The notes under the pieces are model-generated. The model was not told where the DNA came from. It saw nothing but the letters and a program-made list of their open reading frames with translations, and searched no databases. Position numbers and translations under genes: made by a program. From positions 1 through 64,000 of the IMG/VR virus record IMGVR_UViG_3300027763_000027: 64,000 bases of DNA; one strand, written 5' to 3'. Below, piece after piece: positions 289-53,408 of the stretch (its first letter is position 1; each line of letters opens with the position of its first letter). The DNA is from a virus.

Positions 289-3200
289 GTAATGATGACA
301 TGGGCGCCAGTAGCAATAGTCTCACAAGATTATACTATGGTAACAAAAACAGGAGACTCTAATCTATACGCTTTAGTTAAACAGGGTGGCATTGAAACTC
401 AATATAATATAAATTTGCCATCATATACAAATACAACTATGTTAGTTAAATATGATCCATTGCAAAAACCATCTTTCGTATATTCGGCTGTAAGTGGAAC
501 GGGTTATGTGTTAAATTATTTAAAATTGAATAGTGGAAATTGGGAAGTAAAAACTGTTGGATCTCTAGGTTCTTATATTGAAAAAGATTCTATAGATCTT
601 CAATATGATCCAAACGATAATCTTCCTGCATGTATATTATTCGATACATCTAATAATGATTTAAATTATTATAAATATAGTGGAAATTCTTTTGTCAAGA
701 CAACAGTATTTGATGGAGCAATAAATAATGGTAATTTAGCAACCTCGAATCAGACAGTTAAATACGCTAATTTGAATTTTGATTTATATGATAGTTTTCC
801 AGTTGTAACATTTTTAGAAGAACGTTATTTTCCAGTAGTTGGGACTGGGATTGGTATTTATTTTTACCATGGAAAAAATTATAACAACGGATTAGGATTT
901 CAAAAATCTATAATAAATACATTTTCTCAAACATTAAATAATAAAAAACATATAAATACAAAATTAATACAATCAAAAAATTTATTTCTAACTTTCTTTG
1001 GAGGAAATACTACAGGACTCTTTCTTAATATGGTTAAAGATAACATTCAGTATCCATCAAATTGGAAAACTGGCACACATTATGATTTAACTGGAGATAA
1101 TATATATGAAAAGCCACAAGTTGAAGTTTTTCCATTACCTTATGAGAATGTTTCTGTAGCTTATATATCCACTAATTCAAACAAAAGGACTGGTTTATTT
1201 ATTGAGGCATTTAATAATCTTGAAGCCACAAATTTAGATGTTAACTCTAACATACAACCATATAATTATGCAAAATATACTTTAATAACAGGATCTGGAA
1301 TAGATATTAATAAAAATATTATTTCAAAAATAGATTCTGACCTTAATCCCATAGTTTTTTATAAAAAAGACAATCTTATTAAATATGCAAAATATACAGG
1401 AATTAATTTTAGTGCTCCTAATTCGTGGTCTAATAACAATTATAATTCAGGTTTTTCTAGCGAAAATACTTTTAAAAATTTAAGTAATTCAAGTTCTTAT
1501 CAATTTGGATTTGATTTTGCAACAAAAGATATTTTTAAAATTTACGCAGTGACCCTAAACGACAGTAGACATGATACTCAAGGCGGACCCAACTATCTTC
1601 ATACTGGAGGATACAACATATTTCAAGAATATAAGTATCCATATGTCAAACCTACTAGAAGTGGAACAATTGACAGCACATTACTAGAAATGAATTCTTG
1701 TAGCATAAAAATAAACCCAGTTACAAAACAGCCAAACTTAATGTTCGTTGATACTAATATAATAAAATATTATTATCCTATAAATGATGAATTAACATCT
1801 TGGACAGGCTTAACTTTCCCTTCTGGAAATATTATTCTAAGTGGCAAAAATATTTCTATTCGTGTACAAGATATGGGTAAATTTGATTTTGATAGAGAAA
1901 CAAATCAATTAGTTATGCATGCTCATTGCCGTTCTTGGACTGGTACCGTTAGCTATGATAATGGTATTCTATTTAAAAAAGATTTAACAGGGGCAGGATA
2001 CACATATTATAATACTCCATATACTGGTTCTTACGGAGCAGCAACCGATTTTAAAGTAAATCCAATTACAAATCAATATTCATTAATTTATGTAGATTCA
2101 TATCATGGTATAATATATTCTGAAATGAACCCGTACACAAAAGCTTGGAAACATTCATATATTGAATCGGGTGGACTATATGGAGATAGTAAAATTAATT
2201 TAGATTTTAAAAGCAATGGTTATCCAGTTACAGCTTATGTAACAATTAGCGGTAGCGCGAGGAATATAACTGGATTTCTAAAAATAGCAGAATATGATGG
2301 TTCAAATTGGACAAAAACAATACTTCATACTGCAACAGGAAATTATTTTTGGTTAAATGGGCTTGATTTTAAATATAACTCTGGAGAAAATTATTATGGA
2401 GTTTCATGTGTTGATAATCAGAATTATCTGCCAAAGTTAAGCGGACTATATATAACAAATAAAGGCGTTCCATATGATGGGCAAATTAAAAAATATAGTT
2501 GGGATCATATTGCTCCTAATAATGAATACGCTTATCATACTCAATTGCTTTTTAAACAATATAGTGGCGAGACTACGCCATTTATTTTTAGATTCTCAGG
2601 TTTTAATGATATTATTTATTTAGAAAATGAAAAGTTAATAACAGGAAAATTTATAAATAAATTAGATTTAAACTCACAATTTGGTACCGCAGAAGTAATA
2701 GATTATACAACCGAACAAAAGGAAGCGCCAAAAGTTCCAATACAATTTTTCATAAGTGAAAATTATAATGGAGAATGGACTATTTATGAAAATCAAAGCG
2801 TGCTTGCTCAAAAAAATTTAAATACATCATTTAGGTTTACTCAAGGGTTTGGAAATGAAATTTTAAAACTTTATACATTCTATACTTATCCTGGAAACTC
2901 AATATGTATTAACTTTTATAATAATAATGTAGTTGGTAGTGTTGTTTTGGGCCGTGCAATTCTACGATACAATGGAAATAATTTAATAGATATTACTTCA
3001 ATGCAGCTTTCAGCGAGTAATAAAATATGCAGTAGTATCCCTAGATCAACGGTTACCTCAACTAGCGCACCCATAGCTGCACCATCAACATCCGCTCCAA
3101 CTTCGGCACCTATATTTAGTCCAGATGTTTATTCAACTTATACATCTTCTCAACAAAATATTTTAATGAATAGTAGTAATAATGGAGCAGCTTCTGTTTA

Positions 3201-4416
3201 TCCAATAACGTTTAATGTAAATAATATTAATAGCAATAGCGTAGTACGTCAGGTAAATTTAGAATTAGAAGGCTATAATCATACTTATGCTGAAGATGTG
3301 GCGATGATTTTAGTTTCTCCATCAGGTGATGGAGTTTTAATTTCGAATTGCTTGGGTTATAATAATGCTGCAAATAATATAAATGTTGTTTTTGATAAAA
3401 ACGCACCCCTTTTATGGAATGGATATAGTTCTGGTACTTATAGACCAAATTCTCTAACTTCTGGAGATTGTGGTGATAGAATATTTCAACCAGAAATAAA
3501 TCTTCCGTACACAGGTATAAGTTCTTATTCAACTGATTTATCTATATTTTCTCACATGCAACCAAATGAAGCAAATGGAATTTGGAGACTTTATATTCAA
3601 GATTTTTGGCCATCAGATGATAATGGTTCTTTATTAAGAGCTAAATTAAAATTTTATACAGATATAAATTGCTCTTGTTTAGAGGGAACAAATAGCCACA
3701 TAAAAAGACTTGGTACTTATTATAGAGATTTTATTCCAAATCAAGAATTTTGTGATAAAAGTCCAGTTAACGTTGTCGTTACAAATCAATCATGTTTAAA
3801 TTATGGAGCAACCATACAATGTATGTCATGTCAAACTCCATGTGATAATGGTTGTGCGCGAGGAACAACTCTACAAAGCACACCATGCGCGCAAGCTTGC
3901 CCAGGATGTTGTCCTTATCCAGAGCTTGGATGCAAAGGTACTTTAACAACATTTGATGATCAAAAAGATGTTGATCGTTATTTTGCGAGTTATAATGAAG
4001 ATGACAGAAAACAATCTTGCGCTGAAACTTTTGGTATAGTTAGTCCATTATCATGTTACGAAGGATATCTAGCATGTGGTGACCCTGTCACAATAACATT
4101 TACTGCATCTCAAGTAGATGATGCTGTCACTTTCGAATATACTGGAACCGTTATTGCTTGGGGTGGAGATCCGCCCTACTCGAGAACCGCAACTGTTCTT
4201 CCTGGTGGAACAGCTCAAATTAGAATAGCAAATATTAATGAACAAGGTCCATCTCACGCTATTGTTTCAATAAGCAGTTCTAAAGGAGGAAGCGTAAACA
4301 CAACACATTGTTGTTGTGGATTCGCAAATAGAAATTGCGAAGGAAATGGTCCAGTTATTACTCCTTGTAACTGTCCAAGCAATATAGTTATTGCGAGTTT
4401 ATTTGTGCCAAGATAA
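1..4416 (+). CDS. Large virion structural protein (fibre/decoration-like), 5'-partial: Pro/Thr/Ala linker, beta-rich region, proprotein-convertase P-like domain, Cys-rich C-terminus
   Basis: Frame +1 is open from base 1 into ORF 292..4416; P-domain-like motif HTYAEDVAMILVSPSG...ANGIWRLYIQDFWPSDDNGSL; many Cys in the last ~250 aa; upstream of lysis and tail genes. Confidence 0.7.
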   Translation, partial: TAPPTTAPTVAPTSAPTVAPTKAPTAPPTTAPTVAPTSAPTVAPTKAPTAPPTTAPTVAPTSAPTVAPTKAPTAPPTSAPTVAPTVAPTVAPTSAPVMMTWAPVAIVSQDYTMVTKTGDSNLYALVKQGGIETQYNINLPSYTNTTMLVKYDPLQKPSFVYSAVSGTGYVLNYLKLNSGNWEVKTVGSLGSYIEKDSIDLQYDPNDNLPACILFDTSNNDLNYYKYSGNSFVKTTVFDGAINNGNLATSNQTVKYANLNFDLYDSFPVVTFLEERYFPVVGTGIGIYFYHGKNYNNGLGFQKSIINTFSQTLNNKKHINTKLIQSKNLFLTFFGGNTTGLFLNMVKDNIQYPSNWKTGTHYDLTGDNIYEKPQVEVFPLPYENVSVAYISTNSNKRTGLFIEAFNNLEATNLDVNSNIQPYNYAKYTLITGSGIDINKNIISKIDSDLNPIVFYKKDNLIKYAKYTGINFSAPNSWSNNNYNSGFSSENTFKNLSNSSSYQFGFDFATKDIFKIYAVTLNDSRHDTQGGPNYLHTGGYNIFQEYKYPYVKPTRSGTIDSTLLEMNSCSIKINPVTKQPNLMFVDTNIIKYYYPINDELTSWTGLTFPSGNIILSGKNISIRVQDMGKFDFDRETNQLVMHAHCRSWTGTVSYDNGILFKKDLTGAGYTYYNTPYTGSYGAATDFKVNPITNQYSLIYVDSYHGIIYSEMNPYTKAWKHSYIESGGLYGDSKINLDFKSNGYPVTAYVTISGSARNITGFLKIAEYDGSNWTKTILHTATGNYFWLNGLDFKYNSGENYYGVSCVDNQNYLPKLSGLYITNKGVPYDGQIKKYSWDHIAPNNEYAYHTQLLFKQYSGETTPFIFRFSGFNDIIYLENEKLITGKFINKLDLNSQFGTAEVIDYTTEQKEAPKVPIQFFISENYNGEWTIYENQSVLAQKNLNTSFRFTQGFGNEILKLYTFYTYPGNSICINFYNNNVVGSVVLGRAILRYNGNNLIDITSMQLSASNKICSSIPRSTVTSTSAPIAAPSTSAPTSAPIFSPDVYSTYTSSQQNILMNSSNNGAASVYPITFNVNNINSNSVVRQVNLELEGYNHTYAEDVAMILVSPSGDGVLISNCLGYNNAANNINVVFDKNAPLLWNGYSSGTYRPNSLTSGDCGDRIFQPEINLPYTGISSYSTDLSIFSHMQPNEANGIWRLYIQDFWPSDDNGSLLRAKLKFYTDINCSCLEGTNSHIKRLGTYYRDFIPNQEFCDKSPVNVVVTNQSCLNYGATIQCMSCQTPCDNGCARGTTLQSTPCAQACPGCCPYPELGCKGTLTTFDDQKDVDRYFASYNEDDRKQSCAETFGIVSPLSCYEGYLACGDPVTITFTASQVDDAVTFEYTGTVIAWGGDPPYSRTATVLPGGTAQIRIANINEQGPSHAIVSISSSKGGSVNTTHCCCGFANRNCEGNGPVITPCNCPSNIVIASLFVPR

Positions 4417-4429
4417 TATAACAATTTAA

Positions 4430-5059
4430 ATGAATATATCTAAAAAATCTCTTGATCTTATACTAGAATTTGAAGTTGGCGGAGGAGAGAGCTATTATAA
4501 TAAATTTTTAAAAAATCCAACATGGCCAGGAGAGCAAAGCGGAGTTACAATTGGCGTAGGTTATGATCTTGGATATGTAAATAAAAGTGAATTTAGCGAA
4601 GATTGGAAAGATCTTCCTAAAGAAGTTTTTGATAGATTGTATAAAGTTGTAGGCATAAAAGGATATAACGCAAAAGGTTTAATTAGAGGATTAAAAGATA
4701 TAACTATTCCTTGGGATCTTTCACTAAAAGTTTTTAACAATAAAACAATAACTAAATTTTATAATTTAACGCGCGAAACTTTTCCTAATTTTGATAATCT
4801 TCCAGAAGATGCAAAAGGTGGATTAGTTAGTCTTGTGTTCAATAGGGGAGCAGCTTTAGAAGGTGATCGTCGGCGCGAAATGAAATTAATAAGAGATGGT
4901 ATGAAATTAACATCTACTTTTGATCAAAAAACTTTAACTTTTATAGCTAATCAAATAAGAAGTATGAAAAGAATATGGATTGGAGGCAGTATAGAAAAGG
5001 GCATGAGTAGAAGACGAGATGCTGAAGCTAAATTAATTGAAAATTCATTAAATACTTAA
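4430..5059 (+). CDS. Lysozyme/endolysin, pesticin C-terminal-like
   Basis: EFEVGG, SGVTIGVGYDLG, LVSLVFNRG and RRRDAEAKL motifs of T4-lysozyme-fold muramidases. Confidence 0.8.
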   Translation: MNISKKSLDLILEFEVGGGESYYNKFLKNPTWPGEQSGVTIGVGYDLGYVNKSEFSEDWKDLPKEVFDRLYKVVGIKGYNAKGLIRGLKDITIPWDLSLKVFNNKTITKFYNLTRETFPNFDNLPEDAKGGLVSLVFNRGAALEGDRRREMKLIRDGMKLTSTFDQKTLTFIANQIRSMKRIWIGGSIEKGMSRRRDAEAKLIENSLNT

Positions 5060-34218: not shown

Positions 34219-34247
34219 ATATTATCATTATAATGTAATTATGTCAA
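34219..34247 (-). promoter_or_regulatory. Sigma70-type promoter TTGACA-17-TAATAT
   Basis: 17-nt spacer; 7 nt to the ATG at 34211. Confidence 0.75.
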
Positions 34248-36826
34248 CTATTTTTGTCTATCTTTTTTAAATCATTTAATTTCATATAAATTTGATGATC
34301 TTGGATAGCTATTAAATCGCCAAATACACAATCATCTCTTTTTGAGCCTTTCGCTATAACAATATTGCCTTCTTCAAAAGCTTTGTTATTTAACAGTTTA
34401 TTATTTTCAATGTTATCATTAAATATTAATACGCTAATAGAACTGGTTTCATCTGATATTTTTAATCTCACATATCTAGTTTTCTTTTCGTTTTTTGATA
34501 CACCAGTATATACTTCCTCTATTTGACCCACAAATGCTACTTTTGAATTAATTGGTTCTTCTAGGATATCTGATATAAATTTTAAATTCTCACGCTTTTC
34601 AATAAAGATATCCCTTAGATTTTTGTTGTATGTATATCCTAATAGCTTTTTTTCATAATACCAATTTGCAAAACTTTCGCTTTTACTATTCTGATTGTAA
34701 ATTTCAAGATATGGCGCATACTTTGCTTTAATAGTGTTTAATCTGTTATCTTTAATAACCACATGATTTTTTTCGTCAGTAAATTTATTGAGGTGTTTAA
34801 TTATTTTAATTAAATCATAATCAAATTTATCTGCAAATGAAATTGCATATTTTTTTTCTTTGGCAGTTAGGATGTTCCATAATTGAGCTTCTAGAACAAT
34901 TTTACTTCTAGATTGACTAAAACCACTTAATGCCCCAGCTTGAATTAAAGATGATAGAACCCCAATGTTAAGATTTGCTTCTTCTGCTGCTTGGAAAATT
35001 TCAAATTTATTAGAATACTTATTTCTAAAGCTATTTAATTTTTCGATAGATTTATCACTAATCCCTTTTATAGAGAGCAATCCAAATCTGATATCCTTAT
35101 CTTCTGTTGAGAAATCCATTTCTGATTTAATGATATGTGGAGGAAGAAGTTTGATGTCGAATTCATGCATTTCTTTTTGAATCTTAGAGATTTCACCAAT
35201 TGGGTCTGGTTCATTTCTGCTCATTTTCAATAATGACAAGAAAAATTGTTGAGGATAATTAAATTTTAAATAAATTGTAACTGCTGCCAAAGCAGCATAA
35301 GCTAACGAATGACTTTTGTTAAATGAATAATTTGCAGAATCCTCTAGAATCTTCCAAAGAATCTCTCCTACTTCTTTTGGAATTTTATTTTCTTTAATCT
35401 TTAATTCGATCTTTTTCTTCCACGCTTTGATTTCTTCTGTTTTCTTTTTACCAACGATTCTCCTTAAGATTTCCGCTTCGTCAAGAGTGAAGCCGATTTT
35501 GTTCGCCATCTTCATCAACTGCTCTTGATACAGGGCTACTCCACCAGTTTCTTTTAGGATCTCATCGAAAAATGGATGAATACTTTCTGATTGTTGATAA
35601 TTTGTATGAGCAGCATATTTATCCACGAATTGTAATGCTCCAGGTCTTGCTAAAGCTAAGACTCCGCTAAGTTCCTCAAGGCTTTTTGGCTTTACCTTTT
35701 GACAAACTCTAAAATTAGTTTCTGCTTCAATTTGAAACAGTCCGTGAGGCGATCTTAATTCTTGTAGATTTCTATAAATAGATTCATGATTTAAATCGAT
35801 ATCTTCTACTTTGATGCCTATGCTTTTGCAAACATCATCAACTACAGAAACACTTCTTAAACCCAAAATATCGAGTTTAATATTAAATAAACTAACCCAG
35901 TTCATATCAAAACTAGAAACTGGCTCTTTGTCTGATGAAAATTCAGTAGGACAAATTGTTTCTAAATTATAATAAGATAAAAGAACTCCAGAAGGATGGA
36001 CTCCTTTATTTTTAATTAAATCTCTGAGTTTTAAAGCTATTTCATAAGTTTCTTTATTTTCATCACACCAATCTTTAAATTTGGAAACTTCTTCGTAAGC
36101 CTCTTCGATGTTTTTGACTTGACCATATACCTTTGGAATTAAAGAGGAGATATTCGTCATCTCTTCTTCTGTTTTTTCGCCCACGATTTTACCACATTCT
36201 TTTATTAATAATTTTCCACTTAATGTGTTTAAAGTTAAAATTTTACTAGTTTTTCCTTTAAATTTATTTTCCAAGTATTGAAGTACTTTTTGTCTATTAT
36301 AATAACAAATGTCCAAATCAACGTCACACATTAAACTACCATCCAAATAGGTTACCCCGTCAACAACCTGCTTTTTAGCTCGAATCTTGGATATAAATCT
36401 TTCGAAATAGAGGTCATATTTAACTGGATCTATCCTAGTTACCCCAATAAGATATAGTATTAATGACCCAGCAGCCGAACCCCTACCTAATCCTATTGGA
36501 ATATTGCTAGTTTTACAAAAATTAATAACATCCCAAACTAATAAAATATAATCTATAAAACCCAATTCTTTTAATGTTTCTAATTCGTATTTTGCTCTAT
36601 CAATATATTTTTTATAATCTTTATTATTCTTGTCTATATTTAAATTTTTAAATCCATTCAAAGATAAAGCTCTTAGAAAATCATAATTATCAACATCCTC
36701 GCTTATATTAAGATGCCTCTTTAGGGATGAATCGATATTAAACTCTGGTAGTCTAACGCCGTGTAGACCTAAATCTATATCAGAGAATTTTTCAGAAAAG
36801 ATATTGTCTTTTAAAGCGTTATTCAT
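34244..36826 (-). CDS. dnaE: DNA polymerase III alpha catalytic part (palm/fingers/HhH/OB) lacking the PHP domain
   Basis: GRGSAAGSL, FERF, DVDLD, HPSGV, KLDILGL, YQEQLM, YSFNKSH. Confidence 0.95.
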   Translation of the reverse strand: MNNALKDNIFSEKFSDIDLGLHGVRLPEFNIDSSLKRHLNISEDVDNYDFLRALSLNGFKNLNIDKNNKDYKKYIDRAKYELETLKELGFIDYILLVWDVINFCKTSNIPIGLGRGSAAGSLILYLIGVTRIDPVKYDLYFERFISKIRAKKQVVDGVTYLDGSLMCDVDLDICYYNRQKVLQYLENKFKGKTSKILTLNTLSGKLLIKECGKIVGEKTEEEMTNISSLIPKVYGQVKNIEEAYEEVSKFKDWCDENKETYEIALKLRDLIKNKGVHPSGVLLSYYNLETICPTEFSSDKEPVSSFDMNWVSLFNIKLDILGLRSVSVVDDVCKSIGIKVEDIDLNHESIYRNLQELRSPHGLFQIEAETNFRVCQKVKPKSLEELSGVLALARPGALQFVDKYAAHTNYQQSESIHPFFDEILKETGGVALYQEQLMKMANKIGFTLDEAEILRRIVGKKKTEEIKAWKKKIELKIKENKIPKEVGEILWKILEDSANYSFNKSHSLAYAALAAVTIYLKFNYPQQFFLSLLKMSRNEPDPIGEISKIQKEMHEFDIKLLPPHIIKSEMDFSTEDKDIRFGLLSIKGISDKSIEKLNSFRNKYSNKFEIFQAAEEANLNIGVLSSLIQAGALSGFSQSRSKIVLEAQLWNILTAKEKKYAISFADKFDYDLIKIIKHLNKFTDEKNHVVIKDNRLNTIKAKYAPYLEIYNQNSKSESFANWYYEKKLLGYTYNKNLRDIFIEKRENLKFISDILEEPINSKVAFVGQIEEVYTGVSKNEKKTRYVRLKISDETSSISVLIFNDNIENNKLLNNKAFEEGNIVIAKGSKRDDCVFGDLIAIQDHQIYMKLNDLKKIDKNS

Positions 36827-37040
36827 TAGTTCCTGGCTCGTCTCTTTCTATATTGTCTATTTCTTTATTAAAAGAATCTAGTCCTTTAGCCAAAATCCTC
36901 ATTGAGCCTCTGTCTTTTAAATAGTAAAAAACATCTGCTTTCCCTTGCTTTTTACCTTTTTGAATTGTTATTAGCAAGTATTCTATATTTCCATCTTCTA
37001 ATTTTTGTGTCATGTCGTATATGTCGTCTAGTGATCCCAT
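36819..37040 (-). CDS. Hypothetical protein within the polymerase cluster
   Basis: 73 aa with GGAGG SD; coupled to the dnaE start. Confidence 0.7.
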   Translation of the reverse strand: MGSLDDIYDMTQKLEDGNIEYLLITIQKGKKQGKADVFYYLKDRGSMRILAKGLDSFNKEIDNIERDEPGTNE

Positions 37041-37041
37041 T

Positions 37042-37680
37042 TTATACCTCCAATTGCCATTTTAATTTATTCCATACTTTTAAATTTAAGTCAAGATCAT
37101 TAATTGCATCGTGAAGCTTTTCGTAATCATGTTCTATCCCGTTTTCTTTACCCAAGAAAGTAAGTGAGCTTTTTACGTTCTTTTTTCTTGTATGATATAT
37201 TTTATATTGATATTCAATCAAACTATCTTTAGGGTTGTATGGAGTTTCATATTTTATGCCTCTAGCTATAGCGTTTGTATCAATAAATTTATTAGTTAAA
37301 TGATGCCAATTACATCCCATATACTTATAATACTCTTTTATTAAATAAATATCAAATCCTAAAGTATTATGTCCAATAATATAATCTGCTTTATCCAACC
37401 AGTCTTTAATGGTTGGAAATATCTCTTTTGGATCGTGCCCCTCCTTTTGGACTTTTTTGTGATCATATCTAGTTATTCTTGCTGCGTCTTGACTTATTTT
37501 TAAATCTGTTTGCCATTTTAAATAAAAGTTTTTCTGATCAATTTTTTTATCACCTTGAACTTTTAGCATAGCTATTTGCCATGGAATATTGTGACAAAAA
37601 TTAAGACATAAATTAAATGTCTCGCAATCAATAAAAACCAATGTTTTATTTTTATTATATCTTAAAAGATGTTCGTCCAT
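37042..37680 (-). CDS. DEDDh 3'-5' exonuclease (DnaQ/epsilon-like); start moved to 37680
   Basis: FIDCET, GHNTLGFD, HDAIND motifs. Confidence 0.9.
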   Translation of the reverse strand: MDEHLLRYNKNKTLVFIDCETFNLCLNFCHNIPWQIAMLKVQGDKKIDQKNFYLKWQTDLKISQDAARITRYDHKKVQKEGHDPKEIFPTIKDWLDKADYIIGHNTLGFDIYLIKEYYKYMGCNWHHLTNKFIDTNAIARGIKYETPYNPKDSLIEYQYKIYHTRKKNVKSSLTFLGKENGIEHDYEKLHDAINDLDLNLKVWNKLKWQLEV

Positions 37681-37684
37681 AATA

Positions 37685-38431
37685 TCACTTACTTTCCTTC
37701 CAGCTTTCAAAACAAAATTCATTACTACTCATATGTTCTATTTCTGGTTTATTTAAAATACTCCTATTATTGATGCATCTAGAAGTTAAGTATGTTTTAA
37801 AATCTTTTCTTTTATTATAATAAATACTTTTTACATTAAAGACTTCTAATTCATTTTGCTTTGCGAAGCTTAATATTTTATCTTTAATAATAAAATCAAA
37901 AGGTAATTCGTTTTCTTCTAAAAAAACGATTGGTTTGGTAAAATCAAATTGGGGAACGCATATATTATTTTTTAAAGTATTATTGAATATAAAAGAGTCA
38001 TAAAATGGAATAGCTAATATTAAATCTTCTGACCAGTTTTTAGACAAAGTAGAATAATCAAGTCTTGGTTCGTAATAAAATCCATCTTTAGCAGCAATAC
38101 TAAATAGTTTGGTTAACAATTCGTATCCTTTTTTATTTTTAAAAAATAAGATAATTTTTGAATTTTTAGTTCTAGATTCATCAGATTTGTCGATCATTGA
38201 TTCTGTTATAGATATTCTTAATCCATAATTTAATTTAATATTATTGCTTTTACAATTAAAATAAGCTTCCAAAAAAGAAGACATATTATCTTCTACTAGA
38301 AATAACTCGTTTAGTTTATTGTTTTTACATATTTGTATTATTGAATCTGGATAATTATCCTCTTCAGATTTATCCTCTAGAGTAAGAATAGATCTTCCTA
38401 TAGAATAATGTGATTTAAAAATTGGAATCAT
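37685..38431 (-). CDS. Stand-alone PHP domain of DNA polymerase III alpha
   Basis: KSHYSIGRS, IKLNYGLRI, KNKKGYELLTKL, GFYYEPRLD match the DnaE N-terminus. Confidence 0.85.
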   Translation of the reverse strand: MIPIFKSHYSIGRSILTLEDKSEEDNYPDSIIQICKNNKLNELFLVEDNMSSFLEAYFNCKSNNIKLNYGLRISITESMIDKSDESRTKNSKIILFFKNKKGYELLTKLFSIAAKDGFYYEPRLDYSTLSKNWSEDLILAIPFYDSFIFNNTLKNNICVPQFDFTKPIVFLEENELPFDFIIKDKILSFAKQNELEVFNVKSIYYNKRKDFKTYLTSRCINNRSILNKPEIEHMSSNEFCFESWKESK

Positions 38432-38441
38432 TACCTAGATT

Positions 38442-38470
38442 AGGATATGATATTTTTATATATTTGTCAA
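38442..38470 (-). promoter_or_regulatory. Sigma70-type promoter TTGACA-17-TATCCT
   Basis: 17-nt spacer; 10 nt to the ATG at 38431. Confidence 0.75.
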
Positions 38471-41400
38471 GTTTTTTTAAAATCTCTTATTTTAGGAAGT
38501 AAAAGCGACCAATTCGTTGTTTTGTAGCTTGGGACATTAAAATTTATTGTGGGATTTAATGAATGTATTAAATTATCGTCTTTTTCCTTACTATTTTGGA
38601 TTTTAAGAGCTTTTTGTTTTTTTATAATTTTATTAATATTAATTCCTTCTGGGATTTTTAATTTTAAATTAAAATAGTTTTGTAAATCGTCTATAGACCT
38701 TTCGTAATCGTATTCAAAAAGATAATGATTTATTAAATTTACGGATTTATCTTCTATAAAATATTTTTGATTATATTTCCTATATAATTCTCCTGTGGCA
38801 GGATTCTCTGCGCCTGCTTTGTCTGCTGGATTTTTTAATTTTGCACTGTAATTATGCCAAACTGTAGCTTCTGAAGTTAATTTTAAATTCCATCCTTTTA
38901 AAAAACTCAAAAAAGTCATAACGTCTTCTTCTCCTTTGTAGACTATATAATCAGAATAAACTACTTCTTTTAACCATTTTTTACTCGTAAAAAAGAAACC
39001 AGCAGAAATCCAATATGCATCCACCATTTCGTAGTCTTTTAATGAATCTATATTCTTCACTTGCAAGCGATTATCTTTGGGGTTATTATTATCATAGAAA
39101 CCAACTATTTTAAGTGGTGCGTTAAATGGAAAACGTTCGCGCTCTGGGACATTTAAATATTCGTCTTCTTTATCTGGCTTATCAAAATGGTTTGGATAAG
39201 TACTTAATACTACTTTTTCTAAACCGAAGCTTTTGTATTGGTTAATGAGTATATTGTCCCAATTTTTTTTAACTCTGCTATGAGAATCTAGTTGTAAAAA
39301 ATAGTCTTCGTCATTATACAGTTCTTCTTTTATTTTGTTCCTAGCCCAATGAACACCTTTCGTTAATTCTATAGGGGTAAATTTAATCTTTAAATTCTTA
39401 AAATTATAAGACAGTATTTTTTTATAAAAATCTTCGCTGTCCTGTAAATGCAGACCAATACAGATTCTGTCTGAATCGAAAGCTTCTTCATTTAAAGATC
39501 TTATTGTATTTATGACATCTGTATCACAAAAACTGGCTATAGATACGAATATTTTTTCTTTCTTAAAATCCCAAGTATCTTTGTGGTATCTTGCCCAATT
39601 ACCAATATAATTCTTGTCTTCTAAAAAAGTGCATTGTTTTGATTCTTGAAATTTTTCTGTATTTATATAATAATTTTTATCTTCTATATCGTCCATGTAC
39701 CCTCTAATTCTATATATTAAAGACGATAAAGTAGATAATTTATTTCCTACGAATTTTATTGATCTAGAGCAGATCAATTGCTCTATCATAGGTATCCAAT
39801 TTGGGTGAATATCTTTATATTTCTCTTCTAATAAATTATCTAAATCTTTATAAAAATAGACCTGATATTTTTCTTTAAATATCTTAAAAAAATCTTGGTC
39901 TTTATGATCTGTTGCTATATAGAGTTTTGAGCCAAAAGGGATGATATTTTTAATATTCTCTATTATATCTTCTGCAGGTATCAACAATTCTTTGTATTGG
40001 TCTGCATAGTCTCCGCGCCGTACATGTATACTATAATAATTTTTGTCTTTCAAAAGATTAATAAACTGCCATGCAATATCAAATATTTGTGTTTTATATC
40101 TAACGTATTTCCCTGTTAATTTTTTAATCTCCGCGTCTAAAGAGGTATATATAGTTTGCTCTGGCACTCCAAGTAAATTCTTATCTAAAAATATACATTC
40201 TTCATTAGTAAAGTAATCTTCGGCGTTTATATAATTTCTAAATTTTAAAAAATCTTTGGGCGGAATTACCTTTTCAAAGTTTAATACATTTTTAATGCAA
40301 TCAAAATTTAGAATTTTGCTTATTTTTTTTGCAGATTCTAAATCTTCATTTATGTTTTTGATATTACAAAATTCTTTAAATGATAAATGTTTTATCCCGA
40401 AGTCTTGGTCTAATTCAAAATAGTTTTCTATTGCGCTTTCTTCTCGATAAACTGGACTTGGGATTCTGTAGGCTGGTGGAAGTACTAATTTCCTATTTGT
40501 TAAATATGCTATAGAAAAAGCCAATTCTAGAGACATTCTTAAATTATTAAAACCCGCCATCCAAGGACTTAGTATTAGATATCCTGATTCTCCGTTATAA
40601 TTTTTTAAAGCATTAGAAAAATCCCATTTTAAGTAATATAAATAATCCGTATTGCTTTGCGTTAAATTTGTTAGCAATAAATTATCTATAGGAAATTTAC
40701 ATAAAGATAAATCAATATGTTGTTTTTGTTTATTGGTGTATTCTTGTTTAAAAAAAAGATTTTTTTCACTATCATTTTTATCTTTTATAATGTTTGGATA
40801 ATGAATAATATTTCCTATTATTTTTCTATTTTCATTATACCAATCCGTACATGTTCCTAAGTCTTCTATTGTTTTTATATTTATATTTTCTGATTTTAAA
40901 GAAAAGTCTAAACCAAACATGTCAGATATCCATTCTTTTGTTCTTTCTCTAACCAATTCTGAATAAGATGTATTTTTTTTAGATATTTTTTTAAGGGTTA
41001 AAAAATTTATAACAAAAGGATACATTATAGATTCTGTTTTCGTGTATTCAAAAAATTCTGGAAAATCCGCGAATAAATCAAAAAATCTAGAAAAAAATTG
41101 ATCAGCATTTGGGAAAATCTGCCCAATAATTTGATCATCTTCTAATTGATCATATTCTATACGTTTTGCAAAACACATATCTGGATCAACAAATAGTAAT
41201 TTATCAGAATCTTTAAATTTAAAATAATTAGTTTCGCATAACCATTCTATCGATTTATATTTATTTGGTATGCCTCCGTGCCAATCATGCTTTGCTACAG
41301 TCCACTCTTCTGCCCAGTCGGGTAATTTAACCATTTGTACGTTTTGATCTATTAAAAAGTCTTCATATTTTATATCTAAAGCTTTATTTTCTGGATGGTG

Positions 41401-41529
41401 CCTAATATCATCGGACAATAATATTATAAATTTGCCAGATTGATTAACTTTTTTAAATGACCAATATAATAATTTTATTTGCCATAATTGATAGCTGCAA
41501 ACACTTGTGCTTACGATAAGGTAATCCAT
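38467..41529 (-). CDS. Three-domain protein O-glycosyltransferase: HPAT/SRGT-like (GT95/96) + O-fucosyltransferase-like + Skp1-Hyp GlcNAc-transferase-like (GT60)
   Basis: N: SYQLWQIKLLYWSFKKVNQSG...NKYKSIEWL...VDPDM; middle: GFNNLRMSLE...LVLPP...IHVRRGD...LYIATD...EQLICSRS...ST; C: IFVSIASFCD...GVHWAR...YFLQLDSHSR...LSTYP...SAGFFF...GEE. Confidence 0.8.
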   Translation of the reverse strand: MDYLIVSTSVCSYQLWQIKLLYWSFKKVNQSGKFIILLSDDIRHHPENKALDIKYEDFLIDQNVQMVKLPDWAEEWTVAKHDWHGGIPNKYKSIEWLCETNYFKFKDSDKLLFVDPDMCFAKRIEYDQLEDDQIIGQIFPNADQFFSRFFDLFADFPEFFEYTKTESIMYPFVINFLTLKKISKKNTSYSELVRERTKEWISDMFGLDFSLKSENINIKTIEDLGTCTDWYNENRKIIGNIIHYPNIIKDKNDSEKNLFFKQEYTNKQKQHIDLSLCKFPIDNLLLTNLTQSNTDYLYYLKWDFSNALKNYNGESGYLILSPWMAGFNNLRMSLELAFSIAYLTNRKLVLPPAYRIPSPVYREESAIENYFELDQDFGIKHLSFKEFCNIKNINEDLESAKKISKILNFDCIKNVLNFEKVIPPKDFLKFRNYINAEDYFTNEECIFLDKNLLGVPEQTIYTSLDAEIKKLTGKYVRYKTQIFDIAWQFINLLKDKNYYSIHVRRGDYADQYKELLIPAEDIIENIKNIIPFGSKLYIATDHKDQDFFKIFKEKYQVYFYKDLDNLLEEKYKDIHPNWIPMIEQLICSRSIKFVGNKLSTLSSLIYRIRGYMDDIEDKNYYINTEKFQESKQCTFLEDKNYIGNWARYHKDTWDFKKEKIFVSIASFCDTDVINTIRSLNEEAFDSDRICIGLHLQDSEDFYKKILSYNFKNLKIKFTPIELTKGVHWARNKIKEELYNDEDYFLQLDSHSRVKKNWDNILINQYKSFGLEKVVLSTYPNHFDKPDKEDEYLNVPERERFPFNAPLKIVGFYDNNNPKDNRLQVKNIDSLKDYEMVDAYWISAGFFFTSKKWLKEVVYSDYIVYKGEEDVMTFLSFLKGWNLKLTSEATVWHNYSAKLKNPADKAGAENPATGELYRKYNQKYFIEDKSVNLINHYLFEYDYERSIDDLQNYFNLKLKIPEGININKIIKKQKALKIQNSKEKDDNLIHSLNPTINFNVPSYKTTNWSLLLPKIRDFKKT

Positions 41530-41536
41530 ACTGGAT

Positions 41537-41542
41537 TTACAC
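41537..41542 (-). promoter_or_regulatory. GTGTAA motif, putative late promoter
   Basis: 7 nt before the ATG at 41529. Confidence 0.6.
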
Positions 41543-41565
41543 TCTAATAACAGGTATGAATAGTG

Positions 41566-42825
41566 TTATTTTTGAACAAACGTCCAATCTTTCAATTTGT
41601 AATGCACAAATAAATTTCTAAAATATTCACCTTCGTATGGAGTTATTCTTCCATGTTCACACGTAGCGGATTCATACATGATCATTTGGCCTATTTCGGC
41701 ATATATTTTATGCCAATTTCCATTATGATCTTTTATGTCTAATGGCCAATTTTTATCACCTTTTCTATCTACAATTATAATAGTAGAAATATGATGAGTT
41801 GGCAATCTATCTAAATGTGATTTTAAAAATGAACCATTTTTATAACTTCTTATTCCATAGCATGCAGATTTTATAAGTGGAGTTTTAGCCCATTCTTCAT
41901 GAATGGGTTTTAATTGGTCTAAAATTATTTCTCTTATAGTATTTAAATTATCAATTGACATCAATTCTGTTGCATGTTGATTGTCTTTATTTTGTAAAAC
42001 TCCATTGTTTCCTGGTTCTGCGTCTCTTTCTGGTTTTACAACATTTTTTAATATTTCATACGCGTCTTTAATCAAAGCGAAAGTTTGTTCTGGGACTTGT
42101 TTTACCTCAAAACCAATTGGATGGAACTTAGGAACTTCATCATGAGAAGAAAAAGTTTTTTTAGATGCTTCTGTGTTTGTGTTAATATTCATATTTGAAA
42201 TTTTTTTAATAAAGTCTTCTGGAACTTGATTTACTTCATATTCTTTAAACCATCTTGTTAAGATGTACTTTTTACCTTTCGTAACTGGTCTTCCAGCGTG
42301 AAGAGCTGAACGATTTCCTGTACCATCTGAATTAAGATTCTTCCAAATTATTGCCATTCCTGTCTTAGGTTTAAATTTAATATTTATTTTTTGGAACTCT
42401 GTTTCACCCCCCTCAAGATCTTCATTTAAATAGACCATGAAGGTGTAAAGCCTGTTTCCTTGTTGCCCCACATATTCTTTCAAATTCTTTCCTTCAAACC
42501 AATCAAAATGATCCTTAAATTGTTGACCTACCTCATACCTTTGCCCCTGTAAGACTTCGGTTCTTGTTTTGGGTATATTCAAGATATCAGACATTTTGTC
42601 GTTAACTTCTGTTATTAACGCGTGTCTTTTTTCATCCAATATGCTGGAATAAGAAGTTCTATTTTCTACTACTTGAGAAAGTTCTCCTGGAGTTTCTGTT
42701 GCAGTGACCGACCTTACTGCGTCTTGATCTATTAAATCAATTAATATTTTGCATTTATCTGGAGATAAAAAATTATCTATTGTGAATAGTTCTATACCAC
42801 TTTTTTGAACCTTAGTCATGATCAT
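41566..42825 (-). CDS. Prolyl 4-hydroxylase-like protein with two 2OG-Fe(II) oxygenase domains
   Basis: Domain 1: RTS...QGQRYEVGQQFKDHFD...GGETEF...LHAGRPVTKGKKYILTRW; domain 2: HLD...EHGR...RNLFVHY. Confidence 0.85.
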   Translation of the reverse strand: MIMTKVQKSGIELFTIDNFLSPDKCKILIDLIDQDAVRSVTATETPGELSQVVENRTSYSSILDEKRHALITEVNDKMSDILNIPKTRTEVLQGQRYEVGQQFKDHFDWFEGKNLKEYVGQQGNRLYTFMVYLNEDLEGGETEFQKINIKFKPKTGMAIIWKNLNSDGTGNRSALHAGRPVTKGKKYILTRWFKEYEVNQVPEDFIKKISNMNINTNTEASKKTFSSHDEVPKFHPIGFEVKQVPEQTFALIKDAYEILKNVVKPERDAEPGNNGVLQNKDNQHATELMSIDNLNTIREIILDQLKPIHEEWAKTPLIKSACYGIRSYKNGSFLKSHLDRLPTHHISTIIIVDRKGDKNWPLDIKDHNGNWHKIYAEIGQMIMYESATCEHGRITPYEGEYFRNLFVHYKLKDWTFVQK

Positions 42826-50139: not shown

Positions 50140-51099
50140 TTATGATAATTGATTTTGTATCCATTCAAAAGTTTGCTTAATACCATTGATTAAAGGTTTG
50201 GATGGTTCCCAATTTAATTTTTGTCTAATTAATTTATTATCGGAGTTTCTGCCCCTAACGCCTAATGGACCAGGAATATTTTTAATTTTTAATTTTTTAC
50301 CACTTAAATTAATAATCATGTTACCAAAATCATTAATTGAAATCATTTCTTCTGATCCAATATTAATTGGGCCTTCAAATTGAGATCTCATTAATTTGAT
50401 TGTCCCTTCTATACATTCATCTATATATAGGAATGATCTAGTTTGTTTTCCATCTCCCCAAATTTCAATATCTTCGCCATCTTTAGCTTCTATTACTTTT
50501 CTGCAAAGTGCAGCTGGAGACTTCTCTTTTCCTCCTTTGTAAGTTCCTTCTGGACCAAAAATATTATGATATCTAGCGATGTGAACGTCTAGGCCATAAT
50601 TTCTTTTGTATGCCAAGTATAGTCTTTCACTAAAAAGTTTTTCCCAACCGTATTCGCTATCTGGTGCTGCTGGATAAGCTGACTCTTCTGAACATTTTGG
50701 GTTATTTGGGTCTAATTGATTATGTTCTGGATAAATGCAAGCAGAAGAACTATAAAAAACTTTTTTTACTTTCTTGATAACTGCTTCGTGAGCTATATTT
50801 AAATTAATTAAAGCTGAATTATGCATAACATTTGCGTCATTCTCTCCAGTGAATATATATCCAGCTCCGCCCATGTCAGCAGCTAATTGATATAATTCAT
50901 CTATATTTTCAGATATGATATTTTTTACAAAAATAGGATCGGTTAAATTGCCAATTAGAAATTCATCCGCTAATGTTTCGGAAAACATAGGCGCTTTTAA
51001 ATCAACACCTCTTACCCAAAATCCTTCGTTTTTTAATTTTCTAACTAAATGCGAACCAATGAATCCGCCTGCACCACAAACAATAGCTTTTTTTTGCAT
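50140..51099 (-). CDS. GDP-mannose 3,5-epimerase-like SDR
   Basis: GAGGFIG, QLAADMGGAG, YSSSACIYP, YGWEK. Confidence 0.85.
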   Translation of the reverse strand: MQKKAIVCGAGGFIGSHLVRKLKNEGFWVRGVDLKAPMFSETLADEFLIGNLTDPIFVKNIISENIDELYQLAADMGGAGYIFTGENDANVMHNSALINLNIAHEAVIKKVKKVFYSSSACIYPEHNQLDPNNPKCSEESAYPAAPDSEYGWEKLFSERLYLAYKRNYGLDVHIARYHNIFGPEGTYKGGKEKSPAALCRKVIEAKDGEDIEIWGDGKQTRSFLYIDECIEGTIKLMRSQFEGPINIGSEEMISINDFGNMIINLSGKKLKIKNIPGPLGVRGRNSDNKLIRQKLNWEPSKPLINGIKQTFEWIQNQLS

Positions 51100-51106
51100 A
51101 TTTTAT

Positions 51107-51135
51107 ATTATATCGTAATATGACTAAAAAATCAA
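51107..51135 (-). promoter_or_regulatory. Sigma70-type promoter TTGATT-17-TATAAT
   Basis: 17-nt spacer; 7 nt to the ATG at 51099. Confidence 0.75.
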
Positions 51136-52253
51136 ATTATATTTCTATACTTAAATATATCTCCATATTTGTTTTTTAAAATCTTTATTATTTCTTTTGT
51201 TTCTATTATGAGTATTTTGTATCCTAAATTATAAAGTTTTAAAGCAAATTTTAATTTTTGAGATTCTTGTAAAATATTTGTGCCTTTCTTGTAGCTCACG
51301 GAGTCTATGGTTATTTCAATGTTTTTATTTGGGTTTTTATTTATAAAATCTATAATTTGATAGTCTAAATGCAAATTGTTTGACTCGTCGCTAGCTTTAC
51401 TTATTACGGCGTTTATATTTTTATAACTGGCGAAGATTGATAATGCTATATTATCTCTAGGAAAACAGGGGCCACCAAATCCATAACCATAATTTAAGTA
51501 TTTGCTTCCAATCCTTGAGTCGTCGCCAATTGCAGATAGAATTTTGTCAGGATTACATTTACTCCTTATCGCTATATCTCCTATCATATTTGCGTAGGCT
51601 ATTTTAGTTGTAAGAAAACAATTTAATGAAATTTTACATATTTCTGCTTCAGTTCTTGACATTCTGTGTATTTTAGGATGATTTATAGTATGTTTTAAAT
51701 AAATTTTTTCTATAATATCTCCAGCTTCAATAGATCCTTCGCCAATTAGAACTATATCGGGAAACATTTGATTTTTAAGTATTGAGCCTTGGGCGATAAA
51801 CTCTGGATTGTAACTAACAATATAATTGTAATTTTTTAATTTTTCTTGAATAGAATCACAATATTCTGGCATCGTAGTAGAAGAAATTATTAAATGTTTT
51901 TTTTCTTTTTGTGTTCCTAATTGAATTAAATTATTTATCAAAATATCTATTTGCTTGTGATCGTATTCTCCATTTTCTAACGAAGGGGTTGGCACTATTA
52001 CAAAAATAATATTTGCGTGATCTATCGTTAATTTTAAATCTAACGTAGCTGTAAAATTAGAGCTTTTTTTTAAAAAATTTTCTACGTTTTTTTCTGAAGA
52101 TTTTAAAGTTTTATTATTTACTAATTTAATGTATTCTTCGTTTACGTCTAATCCTAAAATTTTATACCCAGCTTTCTCTAACGTAAGAGCAAAGCATAAA
52201 CCTAGTTTACCTATTCCTATAATAGATATATTATTAAGTTTCTTTACGTTCAT
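51132..52253 (-). CDS. UDP-glucose/GDP-mannose 6-dehydrogenase family
   Basis: GIGKLG, VPTP, YNPEF, GFGGPCFPRD. Confidence 0.9.
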   Translation of the reverse strand: MNVKKLNNISIIGIGKLGLCFALTLEKAGYKILGLDVNEEYIKLVNNKTLKSSEKNVENFLKKSSNFTATLDLKLTIDHANIIFVIVPTPSLENGEYDHKQIDILINNLIQLGTQKEKKHLIISSTTMPEYCDSIQEKLKNYNYIVSYNPEFIAQGSILKNQMFPDIVLIGEGSIEAGDIIEKIYLKHTINHPKIHRMSRTEAEICKISLNCFLTTKIAYANMIGDIAIRSKCNPDKILSAIGDDSRIGSKYLNYGYGFGGPCFPRDNIALSIFASYKNINAVISKASDESNNLHLDYQIIDFINKNPNKNIEITIDSVSYKKGTNILQESQKLKFALKLYNLGYKILIIETKEIIKILKNKYGDIFKYRNII

Positions 52254-53408
52254 CTATTCTTGGATAAAATAATTTTTAATATCATGTTCAACCATTTTTT
52301 TAATTAAATCATCGAATGTGTCTCTGGGTCTCCACCCTAGTTCTCGCCTAGCTTTTGCGGAATCTCCTAAGAGTAGATCGACTTCTGCTGGTCTATAAAA
52401 TTTAGGATTTATTTGGACAAGAACTTTGTTGTCATCTTCGGAAATATACATGATATGCTCACGCTCACCAACCCATCTACCTCTTATTCCAGCAAAAGAA
52501 AATGCTTTTTCAGTAAACTCTTTAATTGTATGAGATTCATTTGATGAAAAAACATATTCGACGGGTGTTCCATTGTAGCTTTTATTGTAAAAATCCTGAT
52601 TTAGCATCATCCATACGCCTTCTATAAAATTTTCTGCATCGCTCCAATCTCTTCTTGCCTCTATGTTACCTAATTCAAGTGGTTTAAATTGTTCTTTATT
52701 TTTTATTGCATTATAAATTCTTGCTATATTTTTTGTAATTTTTCTAGTTACAAATTCTTCTCCTCGCCTAATTCCTTCGTGATTAAATAACCACCCTTGA
52801 ATTGCGTAGAGGTTATAGGATTCCCTATACACTTTAACTAGTTGCCTGGAGGCTGCTTTGCTTGCCCCATATGGACTCCTCGGTTTTAATGGATGATTTT
52901 CGTCTTGAGGAGTATACTCTACATTTCCAAACTCTTCGCTAGAACCAGCTTGGTAAAGTCTACAAGATGGCTTATAAAGCCTAATCGCTTCAAGGATGTC
53001 TAAAATAGCGGTCGAATTTGTTTGCCAAGTTTGACGGGCGAAATCCCAACTACTGGCTACAAAACTTTGGGCTGCAAAATTAATAAAGTAATCTGGTTGA
53101 AGTTTTTCTATAGTTCTAGATATAGCATGAGAATCTGTTAAATCAAAATTAATAAGATAAAATCTATCAGAATTAATATGTTTAATATTTTTATGATTAT
53201 ACACACTGAGTCTTCTTACTCCACCAAAAATTAGATAATCTGTATTTTTAAGTAAAAAATCAGCCATATGACTTCCATCTTGTCCTGTCACCCCAGTTAT
53301 AACTACAGTTTTCCTTCCGTTAATTATCCTACTGGCATCTTCGATATTAAGAATATTGGAAGTGTCTATTTTTTTGCCATAATAGGTTTCTTGGAAATTA
53401 TTTTTCAT
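52254..53408 (-). CDS. gmd: GDP-mannose 4,6-dehydratase
   Basis: TGVTGQDGS, AAQSFV, PRSPYGASK, LFNHE, FVTRKIT, RPAEVDLLLGD. Confidence 0.93.
   Translation of the reverse strand: MKNNFQETYYGKKIDTSNILNIEDASRIINGRKTVVITGVTGQDGSHMADFLLKNTDYLIFGGVRRLSVYNHKNIKHINSDRFYLINFDLTDSHAISRTIEKLQPDYFINFAAQSFVASSWDFARQTWQTNSTAILDILEAIRLYKPSCRLYQAGSSEEFGNVEYTPQDENHPLKPRSPYGASKAASRQLVKVYRESYNLYAIQGWLFNHEGIRRGEEFVTRKITKNIARIYNAIKNKEQFKPLELGNIEARRDWSDAENFIEGVWMMLNQDFYNKSYNGTPVEYVFSSNESHTIKEFTEKAFSFAGIRGRWVGEREHIMYISEDDNKVLVQINPKFYRPAEVDLLLGDSAKARRELGWRPRDTFDDLIKKMVEHDIKNYFIQE

Follow-up and report, generated by a model that had tools for sequence, protein, structure and literature searches.

Hydroxyproline (Hyp)-linked and mucin-type O-glycosylation of repeat proteins has been seen as a eukaryotic speciality, known from plant walls, protist Skp1 and trypanosome mucins. 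In plants, prolyl 4-hydroxylase (P4H) sets the Hyp O-glycosylation sites on extensins (PMC3355594), and in Trypanosoma cruzi, GT60 enzymes form GlcNAc-O-Thr on mucins (PMC9472816). Among viruses, mimivirus couples lysyl hydroxylation of collagen with glycosylation (PMC9546862, PMC5802723), and glycosyltransferases (GTs) encoded by mycobacteriophages have been reported or inferred to glycosylate capsid and tail proteins (PMC11256854, PMC12363180). Here we describe a pair of genes in the IMG/VR virus record IMGVR_UViG_3300027763_000027 (171,916 bp in total, GC 31%, CheckV 100%), the first 64 kb of which are referred to as the window. The pair consists of a gene for a tandem 2-oxoglutarate (2OG)/Fe(II) oxygenase and, 36 nt downstream on the same minus strand, a gene for a three-domain GT (Table 1). 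Judged from its tape-measure protein and its phage replication gene set, the source virus is a tailed phage. Searches of full-text literature covering few subscription journals turned up no P4H-linked glycosylation for phages or bacteria, in line with a preliminary description of this DNA that knew of none in a bacteriophage.

The two enzymes are probably one module that modifies the long, mucin- or arabinogalactan protein (AGP)-like repeat proteins of the phage post-translationally in the host cytoplasm. Domain identities, motifs and gene linkage, which are directly observed, suggest the enzymatic steps, acceptor residues, sugars and virion location that follow. The N-terminal oxygenase domain would convert peptidyl proline of the repeats to 4-hydroxyproline, and the C-terminal domain would carry out another 2OG-dependent oxidation. 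The triple GT would begin O-glycans on the repeat proteins: its GT60 domain would transfer N-acetylhexosamine from UDP-HexNAc onto Thr/Ser (or Hyp), its HPAT-like domain would use Hyp or Ser as the acceptor, and its O-FucT domain would take as its donor a GDP-6-deoxyhexose made by the Gmd- and Fcl-like enzymes of the phage. Other phage GTs (two of family GT10, one GT7-like and one GT1) would extend the chains, and the products would be stiff, protease-resistant glycosylated stalks, that is, fibre-like appendages of the virion. If true, this would be the first prokaryotic or phage case of Hyp/mucin-type repeat-protein chemistry, and it could account for the long PT-repeat proteins of every relative examined. 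It would also provide new enzymes, each a single polypeptide, with which protease-resistant linkers glycosylated on Hyp/Thr could be produced in E. coli, from a module that is compact (two genes), widespread (at least 99 GT clusters, about 70 oxygenase clusters and bacterial homologues) and easily cloned.

The plant and green-algal hydroxyproline-rich glycoprotein (HRGP) pathway, in which P4H is followed by the Hyp-arabinosyltransferase HPAT and the Ser-galactosyltransferase SGT1 on extensins and AGPs, shares with the phage locus a collagen/plant-type P4H and an HPAT-like GT-A domain, and the candidate substrates of the phage, like plant AGPs, carry Ala-Pro, Ser-Pro and Thr-Pro modules. However, the phage enzymes are predicted to be cytoplasmic and are fused (tandem oxygenase, triple GT), with extra GT60 and O-FucT domains, and the HPAT-like domain, the Hyp specificity of which is putative, is kept in phages without P4H. 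The Skp1 system of Dictyostelium and Toxoplasma (the prolyl hydroxylase PhyA, then the GT60 GlcNAc-transferase Gnt1) shares the cytoplasmic hydroxylate-then-glycosylate logic and the GT60/PF11397 domain. However, PhyA is of the PHD/EGLN type, as reflected in the Z score of 16.6 between the phage N-terminal domain and the D. discoideum PHD, compared with 20-24 for collagen-type enzymes, and Skp1 is modified at one Pro, whereas the candidate substrates of the phage are repeat arrays. The GT60 enzyme of T. cruzi has the GT60 domain in common and uses Thr/Pro-rich, mucin-like acceptors, but it is a single-domain Golgi enzyme with no hydroxylase, whereas the phage GT is triple-domain and oxygenase-linked. 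The P4H of PBCV-1, which acts on (Pro-Ala-Pro-Lys)n, is likewise a viral 2OG hydroxylase for viral repeat proteins; PBCV-1, however, is a virus of eukaryotes and its P4H has no linked GT. Mimivirus, also a eukaryote virus, couples hydroxylation and glycosylation through a lysyl hydroxylase (domain in PDB 6ax6) and a collagen glucosyltransferase, and phage homologues of the present GT sometimes carry a PLOD-type GT; its target is Lys in collagen, whereas the phage candidates are Pro/Thr repeats. Mycobacteriophage virion O-glycosylation also relies on GTs of tailed phages, but its GTs belong to other families, it involves no hydroxylase, and its acceptors are short C-terminal tails, in contrast to the hundreds of PT-repeat residues here.

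The preliminary description had recognised a tandem 2OG-Fe(II) enzyme whose first domain has P4H hallmarks, and profile, structure and residue conservation all bear this out. Residues 93-193 of the oxygenase (P0002) match PF13640 (2OG-FeII_Oxy_3) with 71.4 bits against a cut-off of 27, and residues 14-194 match the PDB sequences of B. anthracis P4H (3e-28), human C-P4H alpha2 (3e-20), Chlamydomonas P4H (7e-16) and PBCV-1 P4H (2e-14). In the AlphaFold2 (AF2) model of P0002 (pLDDT 90.6), the N-terminal domain aligns structurally with Chlamydomonas P4H-1 (2jij) over 180 residues at Z 24.4 and an rmsd of 1.6 Å, and at Z 20-22 with human P4H-TM, human C-P4H-II, PBCV-1 vCPH and B. anthracis P4H (21.8 for 6tp5, 21.4 for 7zsc, 20.6 for 5c5t and 20.4 for 5iax). 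The iron triad H106, D108 and H176 and the 2OG-binding K186 are invariant across 29 homologues; by family and modelled fold, this domain belongs with the collagen/plant-type prolyl 4-hydroxylases. A second double-stranded beta-helix spans residues 232-419, and its nearest folds are 6n1f (Z 15.5) and HalB (Z 15.1), followed by PhyH, EvdO/AviO and AspH (Z 11-13), all of them uncharacterised or small-molecule/amino-acid oxygenases. This C-terminal domain matches phrog_2954, and a search of its profile against PDB sequences gave nothing significant (best E 0.02, spurious). Its HxD..H triad is invariant in an alignment of 28 C-domain sequences, and among 29 full-length homologues D339 and H391 never vary and H337 is kept in at least 90%, a conservation by which the domain looks catalytically competent. 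The two-domain oxygenase has about 70 full-length homologue clusters, and neither enzyme of the pair has a signal peptide or membrane anchor visible by eye.

The downstream protein (P0001) had been described as a 1020-aa fusion of HPAT-, POFUT- and GT60-type domains, and Pfam, homologues and AF2/Atlas comparisons agree on these families. The O-FucT profile (PF10250) matches domain 2 with 73.5 bits (E 3e-20, cut-off 31.5) over profile positions 1-326 of 326, and PF11397 (GT60) matches domain 3 with 112 bits (E 5.7e-32, cut-off 21; phrog_24687 at 2e-22). Domain 2 also matches POFUT2 weakly among PDB sequences; its motif reads HVRRGD, with His, Arg and Asp (H502, R504, D507) invariant in 22 homologues, and H-x-R-R-x-D is the nucleotide-sugar motif of the FucT families. 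The metal-binding D-x-H of domain 3 lies in LDSHSR and is likewise invariant (D748, H750). Domain 1, in contrast to many of its relatives, has no Pfam match of its own at E ≤ 1 (aa 1 to about 298, PF23452 HPAT included): it has 52 relatives by exhaustive HMMER search, and PF23452 is matched by 22 of 33 aligned homologues (best 8.9e-15), with P0025 reaching 26.2 bits against a cut-off of 23.9. Domain 1 adopts a GT-A fold in its AF2 model (pLDDT 90), and the PDB structures closest to it are GT6 ABO transferases (E 1e-9), there being no HPAT structure in the PDB; Atlas clusters with PF23452 from green algae, diatoms and bacteria align with it at TM 0.74-0.80, and in one Atlas cluster PqqD is fused to an HPAT-like domain. 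Given the invariant residues listed in Table 1, all three GT domains look active. This architecture is common to at least 99 homologue clusters, some members of which carry extra PLOD-type GT, GT2, DUF5672, carbamoyltransferase or discoidin domains.

Table 1. Features of the oxygenase/GT locus and of related genes in the same record (window positions unless marked "genome")
Feature	Position	Strand	Basis or remark
Tandem 2OG/Fe(II) oxygenase gene, 419 aa, P0002	41566-42825	-	Open reading frame (ORF), PF13640, PDB P4H matches
Oxygenase N-domain, aa 1-205, collagen/plant-type prolyl 4-hydroxylase	42211-42825	-	Structure alignment, invariant residues
Oxygenase C-domain, aa 232-419, second 2OG oxygenase fold	41569-42132	-	Structure alignment, phrog_2954
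GTGTAA promoter-like motif	41537-41542	-	7 nt before GT start, in the 36-nt gap
Three-domain glycosyltransferase gene, 1020 aa, P0001	38467-41529	-	ORF, Pfam
GT domain 1, aa 1-298, HPAT-like GT-A fold	40636-41529	-	Invariant D115-P-D117
GT domain 2, aa 317-612, O-FucT (PF10250)	39694-40581	-	Invariant H502, R504, D507
GT domain 3, aa 658-899, GT60/PF11397 "GlcNAc"	38833-39558	-	Invariant D748-x-H750
Giant (x-A-P-T)n repeat protein, C-terminal part; candidate substrate	1-4416	+	Translation, Pfam
Repeat protein, 772 aa, about 500 residues (TSAPVV)n flanked by Cys-rich ends	genome 85050-87368		
Repeat protein, 461 aa, (APTV/APTT)n	genome 153372-154757		
Tape-measure protein, 2,028 aa	12663-18749		PHROGs match
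GT1-family glycosyltransferase, 642 aa	31750-33678	-	phrog_2170, PF00534 1.1e-8
Fcl-like short-chain dehydrogenase/reductase gene	50140-51099	-	NCBIfam GDPFucSynFcl 1.1e-32
NDP-sugar dehydrogenase gene	51132-52253	-	NCBIfam NDP-sugDHase 2.6e-63, above cut-off
Gmd-like gene	52254-53408	-	NCBIfam gmd 3e-99

The repeat proteins are likely, with good confidence, to be the common substrate of the oxygenase and the GT, and the strongest evidence for this assignment is gene linkage in bacteria. Homologous modules are present in a complete 4.3-Mb Ca. Azotimanducaceae chromosome (L184) and in a 712-kb Paraglaciecola scaffold (L188) belonging to a 4.2-Mb genome. Every coding match to (P-T-x-x)4 in each of the two genomes falls in a single gene or gene pair located 1.2-2.5 kb from the module; it is very unlikely (a rough 1e-3 per genome) that the sole PT-repeat locus would stand beside the module by chance in two independent genomes. 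The L184 repeat protein is about 390 aa long with (SPTTSPTA)n, and L188 encodes two (PTPAPTP)n peptides. Their N-termini are twin-arginine-like (RRSALKKIL, RRDFVTKLG), which fits modification in the cytoplasm before export. Near the modules, L188 also has two proteins with PqqD (peptide-recognition) domains, one fused to a 2OG oxygenase, together with another GT60 and an epimerase, and L184 has a multi-GT protein, an MBOAT and a GT60. The preliminary description was right about the domain families, but its term eukaryote-like has to be qualified, given that homologous modules reside in bacterial chromosomes.

A broader proposal, which we offer tentatively and regard as doubtful, is that bacteria and phages own an unrecognised hydroxyproline-rich glycoprotein system, in which a tandem P4H-type oxygenase and the HPAT-like/O-FucT/GT60 enzyme act on PT-repeat proteins, and that phages captured it. 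The bacterial PT-repeat proteins would be Tat-exported and sometimes recognised through PqqD or the RiPP recognition element (RRE), while the phage would build an AGP/mucin-like brush on its fibres, possibly mimicking host glycoproteins; at the same tentative level, the eukaryotic HRGP machinery would derive from the prokaryotic system or be its sibling. As a separate observation, the regions L188:3929-17738 and L184:4377-18657 resemble clusters for ribosomally synthesised and post-translationally modified peptides (RiPPs) or for exported glycoproteins, with an NTP_transf_5 gene, PqqD/RRE, MBOAT and multi-GT among their contents. The L188 PqqD protein at 3929-5029 was considered as HPAT-like and rejected, since it is not HPAT-like.

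In the phage record itself, three genes encode long repeat proteins (Table 1), all without a signal peptide by eye, and long PT/Ser/Ala repeat proteins are encoded by seven of the seven relative records examined in full. The largest starts at genome position 167042 and runs into the window; joining the two ends of the record would make it about 2,977 aa long. It has PT repeat and P-domain Pfam matches. The same 357 bp are found at both record ends (window 1-357 and genome 171560-171916), and this gene (167042 to the end, then 358 to 4416) spans the junction. However, the 357-bp sequence recurs inside the gene at about 169043, and the overlap may therefore be an intragenic repeat rather than a clean circular closure; the repeat copy number may have been collapsed in the record. 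We lean slightly to the view that the modified products are virion components. The giant gene lies in a tail-gene block about 8 kb upstream of the tape-measure gene, and the N-terminal domain of the 461-aa protein resembles the LtfC/BppU_N tail-fibre anchor domains (Atlas TM 0.88, feature score 0.95). The preliminary description spoke of an Ala-Pro repeat virion protein: the repeat proteins exist, but their place in the virion follows from gene position and one anchor-like domain. The N-terminal domain of the 461-aa protein had no phage match by tblastn, the repeat proteins matched PHROGs families of "unknown function" only, and an Atlas search with the N-terminal domain of the repeat protein beginning MPSYQF returned nothing usable.

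Some repeat proteins have in common an acidic N-terminal motif (genome 85050 and 167042, L020:17791 and L002:14111), with forms such as WDKDFDNFLVG, WNTDFDDFIIGG and DDHLNDFLVEN, and it might serve as a docking or recognition signal. A further observation concerns a 136-kb viral contig (L007:1-6289), where a 1,242-aa (TPSI/TPSV)n protein is encoded directly upstream of two GT60-only paralogues; here PT repeats and GT60 have been paired independently, in a locus that has no oxygenase, O-FucT or HPAT-like domain.

The linkage of the two enzymes was assessed in 49 viral and assembly loci. In 39 of them, the gene immediately before that of the GT, in the same orientation, encodes the tandem oxygenase, with gaps of 0-36 nt and with GT identities to the window protein that drop to about 43%; the co-occurrence of P4H and GT across phages, which the preliminary description had proposed to check, is thus a widely linked pair. 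The oxygenase is absent in 10 of the 49, and its presence or absence is a single split on the GT tree. The two genes are also adjacent in the loci L181, L183, L184 and L185 from bacteria or metagenome-assembled genomes (MAGs). Among these, L181, L183 and L185 (Saprospiraceae MAGs and the Bacteroidetes single-cell genome AG-470-E04, GC 0.33-0.35) are phage-like copies of the pair on short contigs, and their Saprospiraceae/Bacteroidota assignment is a possible hint at the hosts of related phages.

Several results weigh against a Hyp-dependent module acting on the repeat proteins. A search of the whole records of the oxygenase-less GT clade (G001-G004), one of them 166.6 kb and 89% complete, found no oxygenase homologue, and yet this clade keeps all three GT domains, the HPAT-like one included, as well as PT-repeat proteins. 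An intact GT without the oxygenase means that Hyp cannot be an obligatory acceptor, which makes a Hyp-attached sugar less certain. Conversely, the L004/5 and L008 lineages have the oxygenase with the HPAT-like domain missing within 10 kb. Co-inheritance of the HPAT-like domain with P4H, taken as a proxy for Hyp dependence, was not seen, and Thr/Ser may therefore be the main or only sugar acceptors. The P4H of PBCV-1 hydroxylates viral repeat peptides in vitro, while Hyp was undetected in virions (PMC7019647). Although repeat genes lie about 1 kb or less from the module in L002, L029/31/42/48, L032, L035 and L049, a crude permutation test of this closeness within phage records was not significant (p mostly 0.1-0.4), with p 0.95 in the present genome, where the repeat genes are at least 34 kb from the module, and p ~0.1 in a Fisher combination with one record per lineage; adjacency inside phages is therefore not relied upon. 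A correlation of Ala-Pro repeats with the oxygenase was set aside, as it rests on the one split of the GT tree and is consistent with the proposal without being evidence for it, and L184, with Ser-Pro repeats alongside an oxygenase, contradicts it. Finally, PF10250 also includes enzymes that act on polysaccharides.

One alternative is that the GT places sugars only on Thr/Ser of the repeats, while Pro hydroxylation stiffens a polyproline-II stalk or tunes recognition by the GT and no Hyp-sugar is formed. The clade just described retains Thr/Ser-rich repeats with its three GT domains, the HPAT-like domain and the oxygenase are inherited separately, and the GT60 enzymes of T. cruzi use Thr (PMC9472816), all of which fit this alternative. 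However, the adjacency of oxygenase and GT is tight and deeply conserved, the plant Hyp-glycan pathway is defined by HPAT-family and P4H enzymes (PMC3355594), and the repeats of oxygenase-bearing phages are Ala-Pro-rich and Ser-poorer, though across one phylogenetic split. We consider the Thr/Ser-only alternative unlikely, and the chance that part of the glycan is Hyp-linked to be somewhat short of even. The preliminary description had proposed a hydroxylate-then-glycosylate pathway for the virion; repeat proteins stand as the likely substrate, whereas the order of steps does not follow, given an oxygenase-less clade that keeps all GT domains.

A second alternative is that the module acts on the host surface, where it would alter a protein or glycan such as pili, the S-layer, an envelope polysaccharide or a PT-repeat glycoprotein that the host itself exports by the Tat route, and so exclude superinfection or help to take over the host. 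In this genome the pair sits, as the preliminary description had correctly noted, among early/replication genes, with genes for a DnaE-like polymerase, an exonuclease, a primase, a thymidylate synthase, a DnaB-like helicase and a UvsX-like recombinase around it, and it does not adjoin the repeat genes. The bacterial homologous modules are linked with exported bacterial proteins, and cyanophage GT clusters have been read as modifiers of surface polysaccharide (PMC7824862). However, the phages encode several PT-repeat proteins free of signal peptides, often adjoining the module, the GT gene and two of the repeat-protein genes have the same upstream motif, and both enzymes, judged by eye, lack a signal or membrane anchor, so that a host target is improbable. 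DNA or nucleotide hypermodification, that is, TET/JBP-like base hydroxylation followed by glycosylation, is highly improbable: polymerase, primase and thymidylate synthase genes are close by, phage pairs of oxygenase and GT that glycosylate 5-hydroxymethylcytosine are known (bioRxiv 10.1101/2023.12.21.572611) and one homologue has a sub-threshold TAGT match (E 0.0025, 18.2 bits against a cut-off of 27.5), but the domains of the pair do not fall in DNA-modifying families, membership of which the preliminary description had named as refuting its own proposal, with the N-terminal domain at Z 20-24 against prolyl hydroxylases and 11-14 against AlkB/TET (AlkB 12-14, NgTET1 11.6), neither protein has a TET_JBP or TAGT/DNA-GT Pfam match at E ≤ 1, the protein-acting families GT60 and O-FucT score far over their cut-offs, and the same module stands beside PT-repeat proteins in bacterial chromosomes.

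For the modification of repeat proteins by this module, the genome supplies GDP-sugar enzymes, as had been pointed out before: Gmd-like and Fcl-like genes stand together with an NDP-sugar dehydrogenase gene at 50140-53408. The 772-aa repeat gene is followed, over about 5 kb, by a GT7-like gene and at least two that are GT10-like. The GTGTAA motif ahead of the GT gene had been taken as a mark of structural genes. The motif is indeed present there, and 31 of its 60 copies genome-wide lie 3-38 nt (mostly 7-14) ahead of gene starts, among them the starts of several giant genes, of two genes for repeat proteins and of the GT gene; it also precedes the gene for the small subunit of ribonucleotide reductase (RNR), and it is therefore a general promoter-like motif and no marker of structural genes. 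Its position very near start codons suggests short or absent leaders. Window positions of GTGTAA(T) include 6711, 12637, 23875, 41537, 47148, 58383 and 58792.

Megablast of the oxygenase/GT pair against 50,697 phage records gave no match, and tblastn of the GT against cultured phages gave only six weak single-domain matches, one of which is an O-FucT adjoining a 2OG oxygenase in Synechococcus phage S-SCSM1. Tblastn of a neighbouring 514-aa protein against phages gave no match, and in a PHROGs scan of the tail-side block the tape-measure protein alone was matched, eight other scanned proteins being unrecognised. Stand-alone HPAT-like proteins (P0107, P0116, P0131) lie on short or giant-virus-like contigs, the context of which is uninformative. 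A triple GT at 35% identity occurs in IMGVR_UViG_GVMAG-S-1017745-26_000001 (L052, 131 kb), binned as a giant-virus MAG, and a stand-alone HPAT-like gene shares its contig (L194) with ubiquitin-conjugating enzyme and Ser/Thr kinase genes, suggesting either that the GT domains circulate in eukaryotic viruses too or that these are mis-binned phages.

The replicative polymerase next to the pair is seemingly split over three neighbouring ORFs (window 34244-38431, minus strand): pieces of 248 aa and 860 aa match DNA-polymerase PHROGs, the latter being DnaE-like (Pol III alpha), and a 226-aa ORF resembling an exonuclease subunit lies between them. Near-identical DNA is present in freshwater/lake metagenomes of at least three studies, and distant relatives are found in other viral metagenome contigs. 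A lake metatranscriptome contains four short contigs that match the oxygenase gene with full identity (window 41847-42776) and none that lies on the GT gene; they do not count as evidence of expression, DNA carry-over being possible. The RNR small-subunit gene (genome 73669-74733) has relatives in at least 300 IMG/VR contigs, the best 80 at 85-99% identity, suggesting that the phage lineage, or the RNR gene alone, is very abundant in the sampled waters.

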